Positions 1,111 through 15,690 of a DNA stretch of 64,000 bases are shown piece by piece. The stretch's first letter is position 1. Each line of letters opens with the position of its first letter. The notes beneath the pieces are model-generated. The model saw only the letters and a program-made list of their open reading frames with translations. It had not been told where the DNA came from and did not search any database. Source of the DNA: Octopus sinensis. Lineage: Eukaryota. Location of the stretch: positions 57,536,001 to 57,600,000 of the forward strand of contig NC_043008.1 in NCBI RefSeq assembly GCF_006345805.1, read 5' to 3'. Position numbers and translations under genes: made by a program.

Positions 1111-2248
1111 CAGTCAACTTTCGCTACTATGCCACCCTGCGGGACTGAGCCAAAGTGGCATAGTACCGAGGGTCTGTTATCTAAACACTACATAACCAAA
1201 AATTTACTGAACATACGAATAAAAATTCATAGGGTGGGAAGTAAGGCCAATAAGAAGTTCAATGCAATGGTAAAAAGAAGACATCCAAGTTTATTAAGTT
1301 CAGATTGCTTTTAGTTAATCCCGAAGCTCTCAAAAATTGTCAGCTGACGCATCTTCTTTCGGCGGATTTCATTCATTTCGTTGTCTAGCCTATCACACGC
1401 CTGCATGACGCTGGGTTTTCCGCTGCTCTGCTGCTGCATAAACTTTCGGATAGTGCTCCATGCTCTCTGGGCATCTGCAAACGAAACGTATTCCTCTTCC
1501 GCAATTACCTCATTGTCTTCACTTTCCACCGGCTCTTCGTTATGCATTACTTCTTTTGCTATTTCTTCTAGAGTATAGTTGGTATGAGTTATAGATGAGT
1601 ATACTTGGTATGAGATTATAGATGAGTATCTATTTCTTCTAGAGTGAAAGATCCTCCAGTTACGAGAAAATCAAACAGCTCAATTGTTTCGTTCTCATGT
1701 GTCTTTTCCTCGAGAGGTAAAGCTTTCCAGATCTCGAGCAGCTCAGCATCCTCTGGCTCTATTTGTATTTCCTCTTCAATAAACTTGGCTTTCGCGAAGC
1801 AGTTCTTAATCGTCAATTCACTGACCTGCTCCCATGCACGCCGAGCAATGTGCAGAGTGTCGAGCAATGTAAATTTAAACTCGTTTCCTTCATCCATGGC
1901 TTCGAGACGGTGGGACAGCAAGAGCTTTTTGTAATGGTGCTTAAGATTTTGTATGATTCCTTGATCCATTGGTTGGGAATTTGCTGTTGTGTTGGGCGGA
2001 AAGAAGAGCATTTGGATGTTGTCCAAGTGGACGTCAGAAGGGTGACCAGAGAAGTTATCGAGACAGAGCAACACTTTGCGGTTTTGCTGCCCGAGTTGTC
2101 CGTCCCACGTTTGTAACATTTCTTCAAAAATTTCTGCTGTCATCCACGCCTTCAAATTAGCCTTGTACTTCACAGGGATCTTTGTTCTTAAACGCACTAG
2201 GTTGCTTGGAATTTCCGATCACCAGAAGAGGTAGCTTCTCACTGCCGC
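1111..2248 (-). mobile_element. Truncated Tigger/pogo DNA transposon (DDE_1 transposase remnant) interrupting the R4-like LINE
   Basis: TA|CAGTCAACTTTCGC end at 1109-1124. ORF 1616-2197 contains KAWMT, LLCLDNFSGH, FFPPNTT..QPMDQGII..LK..Y and CFAKA. The C-terminal RQLTIFESF is in ORF 1311-1547. Confidence 0.88.
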
Positions 2249-2680
2249 TTAAGTTTGCTCTGACCAAAAGAGTGATTCTTTGCTTGCTTTTCTTTCCCCT
2301 GTTCTATTTCTGATATTTTTTTTTGCGTTGAGAATATATCTTCGTATGTTAGCTAGTTTATTAGGGTTCATTGCTGTATCCAAGTCTTTATATGTATGTG
2401 TTATTGTGTTTTCGTTCTTTGGGTAGAACACTGCTGTAAAGTAAGCATGTAGGATTGAAATATATTCCTCACATGTCCATTTATGCCTTTTTGGTTTTAT
2501 TTGTGGGACATGAGGAACAACATCTGGGCCTTTATTTTGACGGTCATCATTTTCGTAGGGTACCGGTTTGTTCATTTCTGTTGTTAAATTGTTTTGCACG
2601 TGTAGTTTTTCATACTTTTTGCATAACAAGTTTAAAGTACGCACTTCCCAATTGTTATACTTGGGTCGAATAATACCGGT
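2249..2680 (-). mobile_element. 5' portion of the same R4/Dong-like LINE
   Basis: RHKWTCEEYISILHAYF...NPNKLANIRRYIL resembles the N-terminal region of R4-type ORFs, in the same orientation as 1-1108. Confidence 0.55.
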
Positions 2681-2892
2681 ATCATTTCATCATCATCATT
2701 GTTCGACCCTGGTCAAGACTATGAAATTTACTATGTTACGCCAGACTTCACGGTCCATCATAACATTACTGAGGTCCTGTTGCTGGATGCCTGTATCCCT
2801 GGAGATTACATCAGGGTAGGAGAGTGTGCACCCTCTGGAATCTTGAGCAGATGGCTTCCAGAGGAGAAGTGTAGAAATTGCCTCGTTTTCAG
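2681..2892 (-). mobile_element. 3' end of an RTE/RTEX-like LINE with a (GAT)n tail
   Basis: The minus strand reads ENEAISTLLLWKPSAQDSRGCTLSYPDVISRDTGIQQQDLSNVMMDREVWRNIV, followed by ATGATGATG. This is the typical RTE C-terminus. Confidence 0.75.
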
Positions 2893-2919
2893 GGTACTAG
2901 TAGCGTAGACTGGACCTGG

Positions 2920-3035
2920 TTTGCGCAGACGCGTGTCCGCGCTAGCCAGACGTAGGTAGTTGATCCTACGAGCCGACTGGCGCATGCGCGATATATACTT
3001 GTATCGCACGTGCGCGATACATATTTGTTTGCGGT
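2920..3035. repeat. GC-rich palindromes and hairpins, a candidate viral terminal hairpin remnant
   Basis: CGTAGG-tagttgat-CCTACG, GCGCATGCGC, and TGTATCGC-acgtgc-GCGATACA with the alternative pairing GCGATATA-tact-TGTATCGC. CpG-rich next to very AT-rich DNA. Confidence 0.55.
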
Positions 3036-3315
3036 CAACATAAAATACTATTTTACAGATTAAAATAAATGAATTACTATTTTACAGAATAAAATTAATG
3101 AATTAATTATATAAATTAAATAATTCTTGAAAATTAATTAATATTAATATCTTTTGAACAAAGTAAATAATTTTTTAAACTTAAATAATAATTTTTTTTA
3201 CATAAACGTAACACAAACTTATATAATTTTTACGCGAACGTATATAATTTCTGAAACTTAATTATTTTTTTTTTACAGACATATATAATTTGTTAAACTT
3301 AATGAATTAATTTCT

Positions 3316-4200
3316 TCACACAAATATATAAATAGATTTGAAAACCTTCATTGAAACTTCTGTACTTGCATATTTGCTTGGATCGAATTCCCAGACCATA
3401 TTCTCAAATTTTTGTTTGAATGGCATTGTTAACGTACGTAGCTTAACACATTCGAGCACTTTCTTCATGATGTTATCATACTGTGCGTGACTTATAGCGC
3501 GCATAAAATTCTCGTTGTTAGGCCTATTTAACCAGTAAGATTTCATATCTTGTTCTGATTTAAATGATTTGTTGGTGTAGATATAAGTCAAATAATTAAA
3601 CAAATAAAGTGTTGTTCCTGACTTAGATTTGAAGCATGGTTCGTCGTTATCAATCTTAGTTTTCTCTTTTTCGCTTTCTTTATGTACGTTTGTTGGTTTA
3701 GGTATGTACTCTTTCGTACACCAATGACTGAATTCGCAGTTCAATTCATTCGAACCATGAATCAGTAGTAGTCGTGGTGGTTGACAGAAGTAATTCGCCA
3801 TTGCACTCGGAAATTTTACATTTTGTGCATCCGGTATATATCTTTTTAAATTCGTTGCCTTCTTGTATAGTATTCTTATATATTTCAAAACTTGGTTTTC
3901 TCCTGGTCTTATTTCATCGTTCCATATGATATGGAAATGATTATAAGTATTCCATTCCTTGTTACTGCAACCTGCTGCTTCTGCTTTGTGAAATATTACT
4001 GTGGCCTTATGTATCTTAATAAAATTCAATATCTTCTCATTACAATTAGTTTGTACTCCGTTTTTGAATTCTCCTGTTTCTATATTATGGTCGTTAACAC
4101 ATATTTCATCTTGTAGTATTGGTTCGCTATTGTACACCCACGAGAAATCATCTTCATTAATCCATGGGAATATTAGCATATACATCTTCCTTCCTCTCAT
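3316..4200 (-). CDS. Parvovirus NS1/Rep-like HUH endonuclease without an SF3 helicase (294 aa from ATG 4200; 312 aa if spliced to the leader exon)
   Basis: HUH motif NHFHIIW, catalytic-Tyr-like ANYFCQPPR, and a pre-helicase-like segment KYASTEVSMKVF before the stop. No Walker A motif. The ORF is intact. Confidence 0.75.
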   Translation of the reverse strand: MRGRKMYMLIFPWINEDDFSWVYNSEPILQDEICVNDHNIETGEFKNGVQTNCNEKILNFIKIHKATVIFHKAEAAGCSNKEWNTYNHFHIIWNDEIRPGENQVLKYIRILYKKATNLKRYIPDAQNVKFPSAMANYFCQPPRLLLIHGSNELNCEFSHWCTKEYIPKPTNVHKESEKEKTKIDNDEPCFKSKSGTTLYLFNYLTYIYTNKSFKSEQDMKSYWLNRPNNENFMRAISHAQYDNIMKKVLECVKLRTLTMPFKQKFENMVWEFDPSKYASTEVSMKVFKSIYIFV

Positions 4201-4248
4201 CTGTAATGACAAAATTCGTATAGTAATTATTCATTAACGGTGAGCCAC

Positions 4249-5811
4249 TTATCCTGACCCGACTGTCGTTGTAGTATAATTATGAATACCCATCGGCCAT
4301 TTACATAGATGTGTCTTAGAAGAATTTTGTATGACGCCAGCAGTACTATTCCATACTTGGAATCCTGCAGTCTGTGGACTACCAGATATATATTCGAAGT
4401 CTATCTCTGAATTATATGTTATCGTTACCATGAAACTTATTTTCGATGGGTTATCCCCAGAATCTAGTATCGGTATCGAATCTAATGTTGCTATTGGTGG
4501 AGGATTAGATGGGTTAATAGGCATTTGCGTTAAATGTGTTCTACCTATATTCTCTTTGTCTGCCACTTTGTTAACTCCTAACATTTTACTCCATTTCCCA
4601 TTTTTTGTTGGCGCCCATAAATCATAACTACCATACGTATATGTATTAACGTCTGCTGGTAGCCCATCTTTTGATTTAATTGTAGGTGGTTCGTATGTAG
4701 TATCATATGCATAATAATTCATACCATTGAACCAACTAGGAGTTCTATTAATCCATTGATATCCAGCTGTCTCACCACTATATAAGAATTGTAAATCGCC
4801 CGTATTCAAAACACATAACAATTGTTGTGCATTCATTGTCTGTGATGTAGTTGTAGGTTTAGTGAATCCATTATATTCCCACCAATCCTTTCTGCACTTT
4901 CTTGTTGTCTCTACATGACTTAATAATCCCTCTGTTCTTGTAATAGGACAATTATGTTCAAAATTGTTATTAACATTCCTAGTAGTATATGTTGCTGTTG
5001 GAAACAAAGCATACTTATTATCGACGTAATGTATCATATATGGTCTTGTATTAAATGTTGTACTTGTTGTTGTTGTTCCTTGTACTGTACCTAATTCATC
5101 TGATAACGGTACTATGTTAGATATCTTATAACCACATGATTTCACTCTGAAGTTATTACATGGTGACATATATGTTTCTAACTCTGCATTTGTCATGCTA
5201 GCTTTCAAATTACCATATGGTATATATACACATCTATGTTTTATTGTTAACTTTAGATATGCATCTTCCGCACTAGTAGTAATAAATGTAACTTCGTCTT
5301 GTGGTGTATCGAAACAGTTTATATAATGTATAAACGTTCTTGAGAATTTTTTACTTACAATAGGATTTTGATCTCCTATTCCTGGTGGTTGATCACCAGT
5401 TGCTAATGCTGCCGAACCTCCTGGAGCAGGTCCTACGTGTGGGTCTCCCATATCTATGTCTTGACTTCCTATCCCACTATCTTGTGTTCCTCCTGCTTCT
5501 ACTAAATCTTTATCCGATATATACTCCGCTCCCTTTTCAGCTTGATCTTGTTCGGTTTTCCTTTTTTTATTATATGGTGGTATTATCCAGTTCTTAGTTT
5601 TTATAATATTACTAACGACATACGATGTCAACCCTCCAACTCTATCAGAACACTCGATTAATTGTTTATCTGCTTCTAGTTTGCTAATTTCATTAGCACC
5701 ATAAGCTATATCGTGTTCTCTGCAACAATTATCCAAATCATTAACTGGTTCCCTCTCTAGATCTTTAGTATAAGGTCCACAATAATTATAACCAGGTATA
5801 TGTAAAGGCAT
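4249..5811 (-). CDS. Parvovirus-like capsid protein VP1 with an N-terminal phospholipase A2 (520 aa)
   Basis: PGYNYCGP (Ca-binding loop), DNCCREHDIAY (HDxxY), KKRK NLS and a Gly-rich linker. Jelly-roll segments MTNAELETYM..NFRVKSCGYKISNI, YVDNKYALFP, FLYSGE and NPPPI parallel AAV-type FSPRDWQRL..FRPKRLNFKLFNI, FTDSEYQLPY, MLRTGN and HPPPQ. Confidence 0.92.
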   Translation of the reverse strand: MPLHIPGYNYCGPYTKDLEREPVNDLDNCCREHDIAYGANEISKLEADKQLIECSDRVGGLTSYVVSNIIKTKNWIIPPYNKKRKTEQDQAEKGAEYISDKDLVEAGGTQDSGIGSQDIDMGDPHVGPAPGGSAALATGDQPPGIGDQNPIVSKKFSRTFIHYINCFDTPQDEVTFITTSAEDAYLKLTIKHRCVYIPYGNLKASMTNAELETYMSPCNNFRVKSCGYKISNIVPLSDELGTVQGTTTTSTTFNTRPYMIHYVDNKYALFPTATYTTRNVNNNFEHNCPITRTEGLLSHVETTRKCRKDWWEYNGFTKPTTTSQTMNAQQLLCVLNTGDLQFLYSGETAGYQWINRTPSWFNGMNYYAYDTTYEPPTIKSKDGLPADVNTYTYGSYDLWAPTKNGKWSKMLGVNKVADKENIGRTHLTQMPINPSNPPPIATLDSIPILDSGDNPSKISFMVTITYNSEIDFEYISGSPQTAGFQVWNSTAGVIQNSSKTHLCKWPMGIHNYTTTTVGSG

Positions 5812-5821
5812 GTCTACTCAC

Positions 5822-5875
5822 TTTTAACTTGCTGAGCATATCTGCATCACGTAGCTTCAAATCTTCGTAATTCAT
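5822..5875 (-). CDS. Putative Rep leader exon MNYEDLKLRDADMLSKLK
   Basis: ATG at 5875, then 18 codons, then AAAA|GTGAGT (donor GT at 5821-5820). It is phase 0 and in frame with the ttttgtcattacAG|ATG acceptor at 4201. Confidence 0.55.
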
Positions 5876-5924
5876 CTTTCTTTCTTAGTTGAGGGTTAGA
5901 CGTCATTCTCTCTGGGCTTCCAGT

Positions 5925-6075
5925 AAATAATGACAGTTATTTCTGGCGCCCAGGACTATTTATATCTTTCTTTTCCCGCGTATCAGTATCATATTACATC
6001 ACGTGATCAGCACGTCTGAGCACGTTTTGTTCTAGAATACCACGTCATCAAATATATATCTCTTCTCTGATTGGT
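5925..6075 (-). promoter_or_regulatory. Putative viral Pol II promoter
   Basis: On the minus strand: CCAAT (~6074-6070), ATF/CRE-like TGACGTGG (6047-6040), E-box CACGTG (6000-6005), TATAAATA (5964-5957) and Inr-like TCATT at 5933-5929. Confidence 0.6.
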
Positions 6076-6098
6076 CAATATATGTTAGTTCAAATAGT

Positions 6099-8095
6099 TC
6101 AAATATTCAGCTGGGTGTCTGGAACTTCTAGGTTTTATTTCAAAGCCCTTACCAGAAATGGTATCAACTGATATACGTAGCACATAGTCAGCGACAATGA
6201 TGAAGAGAAACGGGGCGAGTGTGTCTCCCTGCAGTAGTCTGGCTTTGATTGAGAAAGATGATGTTTCTCTATCAGGGTTGAAGACGTATCTGTGTAGAGG
6301 ACCTTGATAGCAGAGATGATTTTGTCTGGAATCCCATAGAGCTTAAGGATTTCAAACTTCTTGTACCTATCTACAGAGTCGAACGCTTTAGAAAAGTCTA
6401 CAAACACCATTGCGAGATCGCGATTTTGATTCTTCAATGAGTCTGCGTAGGCATAGTATTTAGCTCAACATTGAGCGCCCATGTCTGAATCCATTTTGGT
6501 TCTTTCAGAGCAAAGGTTCAACAAAAGGGACGAGACAGTTTAGAATCAGCTTGTTGTACAATTTTGCAGCAATTGACATTAGAGATATACCCCTGTAGTT
6601 GGTGATGAGGGATAAATTGCCTTTTTGGGGTATTGGGATGATTTGAGATTGGTGCCAAATCTTTGGAGCTATAAAAGTGGAAAGTGTGTGATTGCAAAGA
6701 TTGAGCGAAAGTACGTGAAATCTATCATCCTTCTAAATTATAGCTGGGATGTTGTCAGGACCAAATGCTTTCGAGGCTTTCAGTTGTTTAGTGGCTGCTG
6801 TTAGTTCAAATATGGTAAAAGGGGAGGTGTTGATGTCCAGCGTATCTGATATAGGCACACTTGGAAGAGTGGGGTTATCAGGGATTTTGGCATTCTTTCC
6901 AAGAAGGTTTTTAAAATGAGTTGACCAATTTTCTAAATGCTTCTTAGCTGATCCCCCTATTGATTCTAATTGATGACCCAGAATATTTGCCTGATAGGTC
7001 TTTGATGGATTTCCAGGCAAGATGGTGTTTTTTACTAATATGCTCTTTGGATAGTTTGCTAGTTTTGCCGTTGATAAAGTCAACCTCAGCGTTCAAGTAA
7101 GCATCATCAAGATTCTTCTTGGCAGTTATGAGTTGGATCTTCAGTGTCTAGGATGGAGAACGGTGGTAAGCTAGTGATATATACTTTAGATGGTTTCTGG
7201 CTTCAATGACATTTGGAGAATTAGGTTTGCTCTGGCCCCTACTCTTCTTTTTGGGAAGAGTAGCCAGTGCAACTTCCTATGTTGATTTGATGAGGCTACT
7301 GTAAACTTCTTCAATGTTATCAGCATCTATTTCAGAAGTAGACAAAGATTGAAATTTGTTATAGACCTCAATAGTAAATTGCTTGGACATATCGGGGTTA
7401 GACGAGAATTCTTTCCAGTCGATCAGTTTCATCGGATGAGGCTTAACTTTTTTGGATAAGTGAAAACTAAGCTTAACAGTAGCTGATACAATTCTGTGGT
7501 CGAAAAATGAGGTAGTCAATTTGTGCCCTGTCACCAGATAGCTACTTGAATGTCCAAAGTTGTCCTTTTGGTTTCATAAAATAATTGTTGGAGGTGTAAA
7601 GATTAAATTCCTCTAAAAAGTCTTTGAGCATTTCCCCATTCCAATTAGTTTTAGAGTTGAAAGTAAACTTGGTCTCATCGGGTCCTAGTTTAGCATTCAG
7701 ATCACCAGCTATAACTAGAAAATTATGGAGAGGTACTTGCTCAATGGTTGAACAAAGAGTTGTATAAAAATCCTCAATCTCATCTGCCACAGACGAATTA
7801 TGTGGGCTATACATGTATACTAATGTTGTTTTCGGATTTCCATCTATCTCGAGCACCATAATTCTGGGCAAGATTGACTCTATACTCAAGAGAGTATCAC
7901 TAGCTTTTGATGAAAGTAGAAAGCCGATACCTCCAACTGTTGAATTAACAGTATTCTTTGATGCTGAAGAGGTTACAAATTGATAAGAACCGACTTGATG
8001 GTATTTGAGGATGTCGTCAGGGTGGTAGAATCGGTTTTCTTGGACAGCTATTATATCAATGCTGTGTGATTCTGCATTTGCACGAAGTTCTTCTA
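6099..8095 (-). mobile_element. Decayed RTE/RTEX-like LINE (APE endonuclease plus RT up to just before the catalytic motif)
   Basis: IIAVQE, YSPHNSS, IAGDLNAKLG, DHRIV, KAFGPDNIP, NYRGISLMSIAAKLYNKL, QNGF, VFVDFSKAFDSV and LQGDTLAPFLFII...RHPAEYL. Many stops. Confidence 0.88.
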
Positions 8096-8403
8096 TATTT
8101 CATTTAATTTGCCACAAGGGCAGCACACAGAGAGAAGCTTGCGGGCTGGACGCAGACATTAATGGGATGAATGATAATAATGCAAGGATGATAAGGATGG
8201 GAGAAGACGAAAAGCACCCGCCGACTTTCACTTCTCTAAAACATTGTTCTTTTTACTTTTTTATAGAAAACACAATGTCGGATACAATAACTTAACTGTT
8301 AGCAAAGTGAAATCACATGTTTTAACTAGTGTACCAACGAGATCTGGGTTCAAATTTACATTTAAATAACAATAGCTTCTCTCGGCCGGGTTAGTAACGA
8401 AAG

Positions 8404-10560
8404 GGTTAAAGCTCTCTTCAGCCACAAACATTGTTAGTCCAAAGAATTACATTACAATATAAAAAAATATGAAAAGTACATGTAGTGTGTGCTAGTGTTC
8501 CATTCCAGTTTCCTATTCAGGCTACGTTTATCTTCTATTATGTGTGTAGCTTCCGTAATTTGTCTGATTGTTGCGTCTGTTCTACGTGTGGACAAGATTT
8601 TTACTTCTATGTTGTTGATTGAACCCCCGTGTTCCTGCTTGGTGTGTTGGAGAGAACTTAAGGAAGGAAAGAGCTCATCGGTTCTGTACCAACGTTCATT
8701 TACCCACTCTCCTATACTCCATGCCATTTCTCCTACATATGTCGTTGTCTTGTTACTGCATTGTCCCTCTATACATCTTATACTATAGACTACATTTCTG
8801 GCTTAACAGTTTGTGGGCTAAATCTACACACAGTACAGTTCCTATCCGTTCAGGGGGTTCTACCAATTATGGATTTGATAGGGTTGCCTGGCCTTTCTAT
8901 GACATTAATCCTTAGCTTAAGTTTGTCTAGGGCCCTTCTAAAGCGGTACACCAGTTCACCTCTAGGGGTCGCGTTGACGAACATGACACTCTGGTATTTG
9001 TGGCTATCATACCAAGATTTGGCCTTCCCTATTTTCTTCTTTATCCCTTCAATAGTGTTCCATGACTGCTCCTATAGAGTGGGCGTTGAATCCCATTCCT
9101 ATCATTACATAAGATAGTATCAAATTTCTTCATGGCTCCTTTGTATACTCTGATCCTTTCTTTATGGCTGTAACCTGCATGCGGTGAACGAAATGTTGTA
9201 TGTGTCACTTTAACTCTGTAGGCTCGCACATGTGGGACACATTTTGCATTATTCTGACGAGGTCTGCCATCAAAATATTGAATTTGGCATTGTCCGTGAT
9301 GTCTGAGTTCCGGTGAATCAAGTATTTGGAGGCCATAGGTTTGACATAGTATGAATGAAGGATTTGGGTGTTATTATTCTCAGTTTCTAGCCAGAGTTCT
9401 GTGTCTAGTACTGGTAGTCTATGGTTAGGGTGTTTAGTAGGGTAGTCTATCGTGATCTTAATACTCTGGTGGATGGAGTTAGCTATTTGCTGAATGCTCT
9501 CCATAGTATTAGTTTCTATATCAATATTACTCTCTTGTGGGGGGTGCCTTTACCACTATGTTGATATCATTAACATAGCAAGAGTACATGTTCACGAGTA
9601 TGGAGTTCTGTGTTAGGCGTTCCTTAAACCTTCTGTCCACCATACTATGAAAAGGTTGACCACGTCACCGGCGATACTAACGTTGATGGCTGTCCCCTCG
9701 TCCTGGGCATATATTTTATTGTTAAACTTAAACGTGTGGCCTTTTAGGGTAACTCTTATGCTAGCTCCTAATGCATGTGCGATCATTTTCTTTACCTGAT
9801 GGACATTTGAGGGGGTCCATCTGCTCCATCTCTCTATATGGGTCTTCCTAGCCATAGAAGTAATTGTGGGTGGTCTACCTCTTAAACGTCTACTGGGGCA
9901 GAAACTACTAAGATTATGTTTATCTAAGTATTCATTATTACATGTCAGTCTAAGTAGGAGGCCCAGTTCCTCTGTGTTGACATTGCGGAACTCCACCTCG
10001 CTCTTGTTGATCATCTCCACGCACTTCTCCACCGCAAAATCTACGTTGATCGATGGGTATAGGGATACCACATCCATGCTACCCACCATATATCTTGTCA
10101 GGTCGCAAGTGTTGTTACAGTCATTGATCCTGCTGAGGAGATCAGGTGACATCCGGATTATAGGGCGTATGATCATTGAGAGGAAGTAGGAGATCCTGTA
10201 ATTGCTAGCGATATTCGCTCCACAGACTGGTCTTGTTGGTGGTCCTGCTATAGGGTCAGTAATTACTTTATGGTCCTTGCAAAGTCCATACAGTGCCGGG
10301 ATATCATTGTTCCAGGCTTGGAAATTCTTTGCTGTACGTTTCTGGGGTCCCAGAACAATTGTCCACATCATCATATGGGCGTTGAGGACCTTTTCTCTCT
10401 CCTCATGTGCCTGTAAAGTTGTTATTTTTGTATTGGCGATATGAGGTTGCATTGCCTGGATGTAGTTCGGTAAGCTGTCTCTTGACATCCTGCCGGACTT
10501 ATCCGTGGGAAGGCATACCACCTCTCCGTTCCTCGTGCGCTGAATGAGCTTACGTAGGCC
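8404..10560 (-). mobile_element. Decayed Penelope-like element (RT, thumb and C-terminal GIY-YIG)
   Basis: PTDKSG, LYGLCKDHK, TRPVCG, GSMDVVSLYPSI, LPVLD, YVKPMAS, and a GIY-YIG region ending ...RQITEATHI...LNRKLEWN. Confidence 0.85.
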
Positions 10561-14214: not shown

Positions 14215-15690
14215 GTGGTTATAGAATGGTCCTCCTGAATGGGATTTGGATGTCACTCCATTCGGATTTTCGGTTGAGAGTAGGTTTGTATTCTTGTATG
14301 CAAACAGCTTCTGTGACCTGTCTCAACATTGCATCGGTGGGATGTGTTGATAGGATGTTTAACTTAAGTTTCCCTAAGGATCCCTTGTGGCAGTCTACAG
14401 CATGCTGATAGAAGATAGTTTGGTTTCTTTTCAATGTAGTTGTCCAGATGTTCTTTGAACCTATCATTGATACTCCAAGAAGTCTCACCTATGTATGGCT
14501 CTGGGTTAGTCGCGCAAGCTCCTTCTTAGCACTCAATTTGGTATACAGTGCCCTTGGTTTTGCAGTTCACATGTGGGTTCGTCTCACCTATGTATGACTC
14601 TGGGTTAGTCGCGCAAGCTCCTTTTTGGCACTCAATTTGGTATACAGTGCCCTTGGTTTTGCAGTTCACATGTGGGTTTGTCTCACCTATGTATGACTCT
14701 GGGTTAGTCGCGCAAGCTCCTTCTTGGCACTCAATTTGGTATACAGTGCCCTTGGTTTTGCAGTTCACATGTGGGTTTGTCTCACCTATGTATGACTCTG
14801 GCTTAGTTGCGCAAGCTCCTTCTTGGCACTCAATTTGGTATACAGTGCCCTTGGTTTTGCAGTTCACATGTGGGTTTGTCTCACCTATGTATGACTCTGG
14901 CTTAGTTGCGCAAGCTCCTTCTTGGCACTCAATTTGGTATACAGTGCCCTTGTTTTGCAGTTCACATGTGGGTTTGTCTCACCTATGTATGACTCTGGCT
15001 TAGTCGCGCAAGCTCCTTCTTGGCACTCAATTTGGTATACAGTGCCCTTGGTTTTGCAGTTCACATGTGGGTTTGTCTCACCTATGTATGACTCTGGCTT
15101 AGTCGCGCAAGCTCCTTCTTGGCACTCAATTTGGTATACAGTGCCCTTGGTTTTGCAGTTCACATGTGGGTTTGTCTCACCTATGTATGACTCTGGCTTA
15201 GTTGCGCAAGCTCCTTCTTGGCACTCAATTTGGTATACAGTGCCCTTGGTTTTGCAGTTCACATGTGGGTTTGTCGAACGTACTGCACAATTACTTTGAC
15301 ACGTGATTCTATCAAATGGATATGATCTGCATAATGCAGATTTGATAGTCCTACCTGTCTTTTCTACAACCTTGATTTTTAAGGCCAGTAATGCGCAGGA
15401 TTTTCTTGAATGCCTTAGCTCGTTCTTAGGTGTGGCATCAACGAACATTACCCCGTGAAATTTCCTGTTATCATACCAAGTATCGTTTCTCTTCCTTTTG
15501 TTGGTGTCTCTCTCTAACCTATTCCAGAACTTGTTGCGGTATAGGGTGGCATATACCATTTTCGTCGTCCCTTAGAATGCGTTCGAATCTTGCTTTCGCT
15601 CTTTTGTGCACTCTGACTCTATCGTCTTGTGTGTATCCGGAGCATTGCATTCGGAATATGTAGTGCTGCATGTGTTGTTGTCGTTCTTGT
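14215..15690 (-). mobile_element. 3' part of a Penelope-like element with an amplified GIY-YIG segment
   Basis: GVMFVDATPKNEL, IKVVEKTG, VYQIEC...YIGET and RQVTEAVCI...LNRKSEWS. Related to 8404-10560. Confidence 0.85.
14482..15275. repeat. 99-bp tandem repeat, 8 copies, encoding NPHVNCKTKGTVYQIECQEGACATKPESYIGET
   Basis: gtctcacctatgtatg recurs at 14482, 14581, 14680, 14779, 14878, 14976, 15075 and 15174. Confidence 0.95.

Follow-up and report, generated by a model that had tools for sequence, protein, structure and literature searches.

A 64,000-nucleotide stretch of the octopus genome (hereafter the window; G000:C12:57,536,001-57,600,000, where G000 is the label of the 2.7-Gb source genome and C12, C16 and the like are its contigs) contains two uninterrupted open reading frames (ORFs) that lie 48 nt apart on the same strand and whose products resemble a parvoviral capsid protein (VP) and replication protein (NS1). 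The locus raises the question of gene order, as VP precedes NS1: PMC11357303 (section 1.1.1) describes NS as the left-hand and VP as the right-hand gene in all parvoviruses, and PMC12355741 gives the same arrangement. Is this order that of a virus, or was it made by the host genome? Our analysis indicates that positions 3330-6098 are likely a doubly truncated germline insertion of a parvovirus, likely recent, with neither viral end left. Taken as a whole, the insertion is probably a copy of a virus that carried promoter, capsid gene, NS1 and terminus on one strand and expressed NS1 by means of splicing.

The first ORF has the hallmarks of a capsid gene. Residues 2-73 match the PLA2 family (PF08398, E 7e-13), in agreement with the initial annotation of this 520-residue frame, and a PDB sequence search with the core returns as its best match the capsid of Penaeus monodon metallodensovirus (PmMDV; 6wh3, E 5e-9 across 56 residues), together with the VP of a Syngnathus chapparvovirus (9nek, E 9e-4). 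The AlphaFold model of VP is of low confidence (pLDDT 42); every PDB match listed for it is a parvoviral capsid structure, and its top rows in BFVD are VPs of unclassified Parvoviridae. As far as such a low-confidence model allows, these matches point to a parvoviral-type single jelly-roll capsid protein with a PLA2 domain. Its sole relative among 5,341 protein candidates is an O. vulgaris capsid (38%), and one frame of G000 shares 99% identity with an entry annotated "capsid [Octopus vulgaris]", which makes a host close to that species likely. The exact VP and NS1 proteins of the window are absent from the protein collection searched.

The second ORF, correctly placed on the same strand behind a 48-nt gap from the outset, encodes an HUH nuclease (residues ~1-168), a linker and a helicase-proximal helical domain (residues ~189-258). 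The HUH assignment is borne out by the motif H88-F-H90 and by Y137, which is nearly invariant in an alignment of relatives. The NS1 model (pLDDT 80) finds parvoviral NS1 as its top rows in BFVD (E 9e-9), and a PDB fold search pairs it with the Rep nuclease of adeno-associated virus 5 (AAV5) at a modest Z of 5.7, under the caution line of Z 8 (root-mean-square deviation 4.1, 127 aligned), a score that two RepB entries tie. Residues 189-258 resemble, by a PDB fold match, the helical domain that precedes superfamily 3 (SF3) helicases. Structure prediction, proposed earlier as a check of both ORFs, thus returned parvoviral capsid and NS1/Rep entries for the respective models. Pfam and PDB sequence searches with the window NS1 gave nothing useful; a Pfam match to SduA_C (E 0.009, under the cut-off) was judged spurious.

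The window NS1 ends right before the helicase and its Walker A region, at a transposon junction, and this copy therefore has no SF3 helicase. The lineage does: PF01057 scores above its cut-off in L073, L074, P0005, P0006 and P0009, and PDB profile matches for the lineage are to parvoviral NS1/Rep (E 4e-15). A HMMER search of 1.84 billion representatives yielded 32 NS1 relatives, of which the full-length ones measure 497-605 aa and carry the Parvo_NS1 helicase; two of the relatives are encoded on contigs of 4,017 nt (P0006) and 3,807 nt (P0055). Other protein searches gave only 1, 1 and 3 relatives, without genomic context. P0057 is an open 547-aa NS1 that is 64% identical over 280 columns, and in a tree of 20 rows, drawn without named reference sequences, the window NS1 groups with G000 copies, P0057 and P0005 (91/90).

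Several lines of evidence suggest that VP-then-NS1 is the order of the virus itself. Searches of the same genome returned 18 VP, 13 nuclease and 24 helicase matches, with both genes present at four loci, and at three of these (the window, L073 and L083) VP comes first. L073, on C16, consists of a VP C-terminus, 35 nt, a putative splice acceptor, the NS1 nuclease and the helicase, at 58-60% amino acid identity to the window, while L083, on C12 ~39 kb upstream of the window start, has a VP C-terminus followed by the NS1 helicase, the nuclease having been deleted. We also compared contigs of four sequencing runs: X3 (organism B), X4 (another sample and study), X9 (organism C) and X12 (organism E). 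In both organism C and organism E, a single contig runs through the VP-NS1 gap (~94% identity) and on beyond 3330 without the transposon. The usual NS-left, VP-right organisation is absent from the window, from L073 and L083, and from the organism C and E contigs. A search for relatives with the same order, which the initial annotation had called for, therefore finds them both in the same genome and elsewhere.

What follows NS1 in other copies is consistent with this reading. VP follows none of the six NS1 3' ends examined (L073, L074, L082, L083, L084 and L144); behind NS1 lie an AT-rich untranslated region (UTR), a 17-nt motif and, in L082, a stretch that resembles the inverted terminal repeat (ITR) of the VP-only locus L077 (0 of 500 shuffles). 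The 17-nt pattern has 11 matches in 2.7 Gb, nine of them in viral UTRs (three after NS1, six after VP-only units) and two that look like chance; a control pattern has one match. Full palindromes thus occur in L077 and a partial ITR-like end after NS1 in L082, and the window copy has neither. L077 also serves as a control for concatemers: its units are separated by 705 nt containing a ~250-nt palindrome, and because a real junction has this form, the 35-48-nt spacer between VP and NS1 is no concatemer junction. From these sequence comparisons, we regard it as very likely that the order is native to the virus, and the concern that it might be a concatemer artefact has not been borne out.

The L077 locus is remarkable in its own right. 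L076-L078 (G000:C4049:17,650-25,200) form a tandem of about four 2.3-kb units with no NS gene, each with a promoter, a PLA2 capsid, an AT-rich UTR and a ~250-nt palindrome. The G000 units are frameshifted, and their identity to five O. vulgaris proteins that also lie in tandem (CAI9722210, -12 to -15) reaches 99%. The array may be a concatemeric integration of one segment of a two-segment (bipartite) parvovirus, or of a satellite or defective genome. A different kind of capsid locus is found at L086:4857-6050 (G000:C22:11.59 Mb), an open 398-aa capsid-like ORF isolated in ordinary DNA. It is 20-24% identical to the other VPs, has a Gln/Pro-rich N-terminus and no PLA2, and is absent from the protein collection; we consider it a candidate domesticated capsid gene. 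Its Kelch-like PDB matches were judged spurious.

How would NS1 be expressed from behind the capsid gene? The sole clear promoter lies upstream of VP, where the initial annotation had placed it, with motifs that we take to be a TATA box, an E-box and a CCAAT box, and the VP-NS1 interval lacks an AATAAA. The E-box core is common to this promoter and that of the VP-only unit L077 (score reached by 3 of 500 shuffles). Just before the VP start, a predicted GTGAGT donor, one of two GTRAGT sites on the minus strand of 3330-6098, ends an 18-codon frame, and a pyrimidine-rich CAG directly before 4200 is in phase with that frame. In L073 a pyrimidine-rich CAG likewise lies 12 nt from the conserved Lys codon, but is followed by AAC where the window has ATG, and in a divergent organism E contig a GTAAGT is found 9 nt ahead of the VP start codon (one loose end, read by eye). 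VP-only units have neither the donor nor the exon-1 frame. On balance, we favor a model in which the VP gene sits inside an intron and NS1 is made by splicing VP out. One promoter near the left end would drive a single pre-mRNA, whose donor 10 nt before the VP ATG would be joined to the acceptor before NS1 to give NS1, probably with an 18-residue first exon, while unspliced or otherwise spliced RNA would give VP. Both transcripts would have their 3' ends in the AT-rich UTR that follows NS1, and NS1 would nick and unwind the ITR hairpins as in other parvoviruses.

The structure of the insertion explains why so much of the virus is missing from the window. A single long interspersed nuclear element (LINE), which we assume to be RTE-like, flanks the viral piece on both sides, and comparisons with two other copies show that 567 nt of it are gone. 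The region from 2893 to ~3330, whose AT-rich tail and GC hairpins had been read as viral, instead matches a high-copy family of terminal inverted repeats (TIRs), often found as inverted pairs (two genome searches with 2150 and 228 first-look candidates, 40 scored in each). Merlin transposons encode an IS1595-like DDE transposase and have TIRs that begin with GG and an 8-9-bp target-site duplication (TSD). Members of the family start with GGTAC; TSDs of 9 bp, with at most one mismatch, flank all three long elements examined and 8 of the 12 distinct pairs of miniature inverted-repeat transposable elements (MITEs; 13 rows, one element having been entered twice); and the TIR pair L029 contains an IS1595-like transposase (PF12762, E 6e-11). 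By these sequence features the family is Merlin-type. The window fragment differs from such elements in being single-ended, with neither transposase nor TSD, and its sequence supplies the NS1 stop codon. Its GC hairpin cluster is only slightly more stable than shuffled sequence (z -2.2, 5 of 200), and the promoter end folds no better than shuffles (z -0.3) and has no hairpin. Since the left "terminus" is a host transposon and the promoter end lacks a hairpin, neither viral end is present, and the element is not intact as first described: its NS1 stops short of the helicase that relatives of 497-605 aa possess. Elsewhere in the genome, the Merlin-type family (L021-L039, L093-L111) comprises MITEs of 220-700 bp and foldback elements of 2.4-5 kb with arms of more than 1 kb and 9-bp TSDs. 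The history may have been simple. A viral piece without its left ITR would have entered the LINE by end-joining, of which the 9-nt duplication at the right junction may be a scar; the helicase, UTR and right ITR would then have been lost, most simply by one deletion that also took the 567 nt of LINE and most of the neighboring Merlin element.

Table 1. Features of the viral insertion and its immediate surroundings (positions in the window).
Feature	Position	Strand	Remarks
Host LINE, 3' part	2687..2892	-	90-91% identity to two other LINE copies; not viral
Merlin-type DNA transposon end	2893..3330	+	GGTAC terminus and AT-rich subterminal repeats; inner boundary approximate, ~3330-3333
NS1 N-terminal half	3316..4200	-	294 aa; SF3 helicase absent; last codons and stop transposon-derived
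VP-NS1 spacer	4201..4248	-	48 nt; 3' end is a predicted splice acceptor, 4214-4201
VP capsid	4249..5811	-	520 aa; PLA2 at the N-terminus, core predicted to be a jelly roll
Predicted 5' splice donor GTGAGT	5812..5821	-	10 nt before VP ATG
Predicted first coding exon	5822..5875	-	18 codons; putatively in phase with NS1 at acceptor
Upstream ORF	5847..5906	-	19 codons; different frame
Promoter-like region	5956..6076	-	presumed TATA 5966-5956, E-box 6008-5997, CCAAT 6076-6067
Tandem duplication, right junction	6088..6096	.	9 nt; read in sequence
Host LINE, 5' part	6099..8099	-	endonuclease and reverse transcriptase fragments, Pfam Exo_endo_phos and RVT_1; 85-90% to other copies; not viral

The insertion is real and likely young, and its junctions are genuine. 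Contigs from X4 bridge the left junction (3212-3995) and the right junction (4759-6150), as a test of the host-virus joints required, and one contig from organism B covers 3296-6128 with 34 flanking letters on the left and 30 on the right, the latter one below our bridging rule. The organism B allele is 99.8% identical, with 5 substitutions in 2816 letters; its NS1 lacks 12 nt, and a deletion of 5 nt puts VP out of frame. Because this near-identical allele has a frameshifted VP, the open frames reflect youth and not selection at the protein level; of the two explanations offered initially, recent integration is supported and maintenance by selection is not. In organism B, a contig also joins 3330 to 6099, with 21 letters on one side; this joint could be an empty allele, but both of its sides are repeats and four similar short joints lie inside the viral part, so it is no more than a lead. 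The organism C and E copies (~94%) have other flanks and indels. Among the differences listed between the window NS1 and that of organism C (30, of which 12.5 are synonymous and 17.5 non-synonymous), the ratio of non-synonymous to synonymous change (pN/pS) is 0.35 (p 0.009), with 15 of the non-synonymous changes in codons 148-186, the linker. Such a pattern is more readily explained by divergence in the virus, followed by integration on separate occasions, than by a single insertion decaying neutrally. The proposed substitution-rate test thus points to divergence in the virus and not in the host. Between the window and the other G000 copies, synonymous sites are saturated or nearly so.

Some observations weigh against the reading set out above. 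L082 is scrambled, with an NS1 piece, a VP piece and an NS1 helicase in succession. The 17-nt UTR pattern was designed from the same viral sequences in which it is found, and the UTR match at L084 has a score that one shuffle in 500 also attains. IMG/VR scans with VP and NS1 alignments and a scan of one JGI metagenome retrieved no free viral genome. As for splicing, none of the runs listed as carrying the element is recorded as RNA, and no joint of 5822 to 4200 is among those listed for the contigs of X4, the one run presumed to be of RNA; these contigs are unspliced and enter the flanks, and they cover the element and its flanks at similar depth, with no cover at 3996-4455, a pattern that carries no weight as evidence on expression. 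NS1 has its own Met at a conserved "KMY", so exon 1 is not required, and at least two ATGs precede that of VP, which would need leaky scanning or another start or splice.

Several of these points could be accommodated if VP-then-NS1 is native and NS1 arises from an internal promoter within the VP gene, or by re-initiation, instead of by splicing. The Met at "KMY/MY" is conserved in most relatives, TATAWA occurs at 4392, ~190 nt before NS1, and no spliced joint was seen. However, L073 keeps the acceptor at the same distance and not the ATG behind it, P0017, P0055 and P0026 have Leu at the conserved Met position, and the donor recurs in a divergent contig and is absent, with the exon-1 frame, from VP-only units, so we consider an internal start unlikely. 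It is improbable that the order is a by-product of a head-to-tail concatemer, a circular intermediate or a host rearrangement of an NS-then-VP parvovirus. Concatemers and scrambling of parvoviral DNA do occur in this genome (L077 and L082, respectively), and the window copy has no termini, but 48 nt (35 in L073) are too short for ITRs and a promoter, the same VP-NS1 joint is seen in copies whose proteins differ by 40% and in two further organisms, and terminus-like sequence follows NS1. The case against a circular genome lacking ITRs is less direct, though L082 speaks against it.

The transposon at the left end could instead suggest a Merlin-parvovirus fusion, similar to Teratorn, in which viral genes are moved by DDE transposition. 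Of nine NS1-bearing regions, six have a Merlin transposase or TIR no more than ~10 kb from the viral piece, compared with 0 of 20 control stretches; the regions are on C12, C16, C27, C14 and C29, which makes five chromosomes when the C28-type TIR in the window is counted with C12. Yet these neighbors come from at least three families and vary in position, the TIR cuts NS1 in the window and is missing at 3330 in organisms C and E, none of 10 TIR-pair elements examined contains a viral ORF, and all classes of transposable element (TE) are enriched and co-oriented in these regions, all of which makes such a fusion very improbable. A domesticated cassette held open by host selection, with the capsid or a dominant-negative NS1 fragment acting as an antiviral protein, would account for the two open frames and the promoter motifs. 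We find this distinctly improbable given the two deletions in the organism B allele, the other flanks and indels of the ~94% copies in organisms C and E, and the 5 changes in 2816 nt, which imply too little time to expect stop codons. That the exact proteins of the window are in no collection might hint at a contaminant or misassembly, but the chance of this is negligible, as contigs from other samples and studies bridge each junction and a third spans the whole insertion. The preferred account thus remains a truncated copy of a capsid-first virus whose NS1 is reached by splicing.

Related NS1 genes are not restricted to this locus. L079:9090-9761, L147 and L148 on the one hand, and L080:7806-8396 on the other, contain two more divergent types of parvoviral NS1 in a similar cluster setting, and in the tree one of these groups with P0055 and the other with P0006. 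P0008-P0011, P0040-P0053 and P0062 are related NS1 genes present in multiple copies on contigs of 0.1-1.1 Mb; as one of them is from Lamellibrachia satsuma, the NS1 clade reaches annelids. In P0011 the helicase precedes the nuclease, as if derived from a tandem. Two in-frame fusions of viral pieces with ORFs of retroelements were also found: L073:2023-2820 joins a Gypsy reverse transcriptase (RT)/RNase H to a VP C-terminus, and L074:7834-9138 joins a zinc-finger-rich, ORF1-like frame to an NS1 nuclease.

The surroundings of the insertion provide a possible explanation for what this copy does now. One-strand PIWI-interacting RNA (piRNA) clusters of the flamenco type consist of dense, co-oriented TE fragments and endogenous viral elements (EVEs), and produce PIWI-bound RNAs of 24-31 nt from one strand. 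The array around the insertion is likewise dense, co-oriented and nested in its TE and viral fragments. In tblastn searches of 304 kb around NS1-bearing copies, with a TE library from which same-cluster queries were excluded, 44 of 47 TE-coding blocks lie on the viral strand (11 of 11 on C12), whereas 200 kb of control DNA contain just three blocks; Pfam, applied to 135 frames, lacked the sensitivity for this comparison. Simple repeats are ~20-fold rarer than in control DNA (median 19 vs 370 nt per 10 kb, p 2e-4). These counts are tempered by the fact that the blocks are not independent and that the library was drawn partly from the tested regions. VP-only loci were excluded, and their three TE matches (L076, L088 and L090) are all on the opposite strand; five outer C12 stretches were excluded as well, one of which has a 402-nt opposite match. 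By analogy with such clusters, we lean towards the site being a one-strand piRNA cluster in which the copy, itself incapable of replication, likely serves, if anything, as a piRNA template. Such a setting would explain the frequent Merlin neighbors without a fusion element. Within a limited literature search, we found no printed report of EVE-loaded piRNA-like clusters in a cephalopod.

The cluster-like array on C12 spans 57.46-57.56 Mb (L137-L142, L083, L040 and window 1-~25000), with ~90 kb of minus-strand TE fragments and few simple repeats, and comparable arrays occur on C10, C14, C16, C27, C19 and C29. Not all neighboring TEs are riddled with stops, as the initial annotation had it when contrasting them with the two open viral frames: L040, the 10 kb just upstream of the window, has long TE frames at 6166-9325 and 2179-3786, namely a 572-aa endonuclease-RT and a 477-aa zinc-knuckle ORF1, with a 536-aa RT encoded on the other strand. 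Window positions 14529-15571 contain a Penelope-like stretch with repeated GIY-YIG pieces. L080-L081 (G000:C14:52.365-52.379 Mb) show, by eye, tandem ankyrin-like repeat fragments between viral and Merlin pieces.

Judged by the parvoviral features found in it, the lineage works like a parvovirus but departs from the usual gene order. It shares with monosense Parvoviridae (Parvovirinae, Hamaparvovirinae/Hamavirinae) an HUH and SF3 NS1 (the helicase in sister copies), a PLA2 jelly-roll VP, genes on one strand and an ITR-like end (L082), and differs in having VP before NS1 under apparently one promoter. PmMDV (Metalloincertoparvovirus, Metallovirinae) is alike in providing the best VP match in the PDB, in its marine invertebrate host and in its divergent NS and VP; it lacks PLA2 according to PMC11357303, and its fold alignment with the window VP has only 19% identity. 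In the Swazi bat-associated megaparvovirus lineage (PMC13426907), NS1 is preceded by an ORF that encodes PLA2 and contains a splice donor, and complete EVEs occur in invertebrates; the capsid ORF there has no PLA2 and is among two 3' ORFs with NS1, whereas in the octopus element the whole capsid is upstream. The segmented densovirus of Acheta domesticus (PMC10267136, in part) is a bipartite precedent for the ITR-flanked, VP-only L077 unit, and differs from the window sub-lineage, which has VP and NS1 on one molecule.

A divergent, mollusc-associated lineage was rightly recognized in the initial annotation, though it is not wholly undescribed. The portion of the PMC5013282 (2016) supplement available lists Octopus NS and VP fragments (KOF81493, KOF62817 and JR446908), fragments of O. 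bimaculoides NS1 helicase among them, and gives no gene order, termini or splicing; KOF81493 resembles the L074 helicase, and thus this lineage, by eye. The parts of PMC9896142 and PMC12115719 consulted hold nothing further on gene order, and our literature search, with subscription papers largely outside its reach, found no parvovirus with VP then NS1 on the same strand. We tentatively suggest, at somewhat less than even confidence, an octopus or lophotrochozoan lineage at the level of a subfamily, with inverted gene order, the capsid in an NS1 intron, an ITR-flanked capsid-only sister and repeated recent capture in piRNA clusters.

Monosense parvoviruses are regarded as invariably having NS to the left of VP. 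A capsid-first genome with a single promoter has to switch between replication and capsid production by other means, and the predicted donor and acceptor make that switch testable. If our account is true, a single splice choice would set the balance of replication to capsid, and repeated recent capture would imply that the viruses still circulate. Together, the capsid-first lineage and the capsid-only unit offer a natural case for the shuffling and segmentation of parvoviral cassettes. The findings point to an unrecognized and probably current octopus virus, and to EVE-loaded, piRNA-like clusters in a cephalopod.

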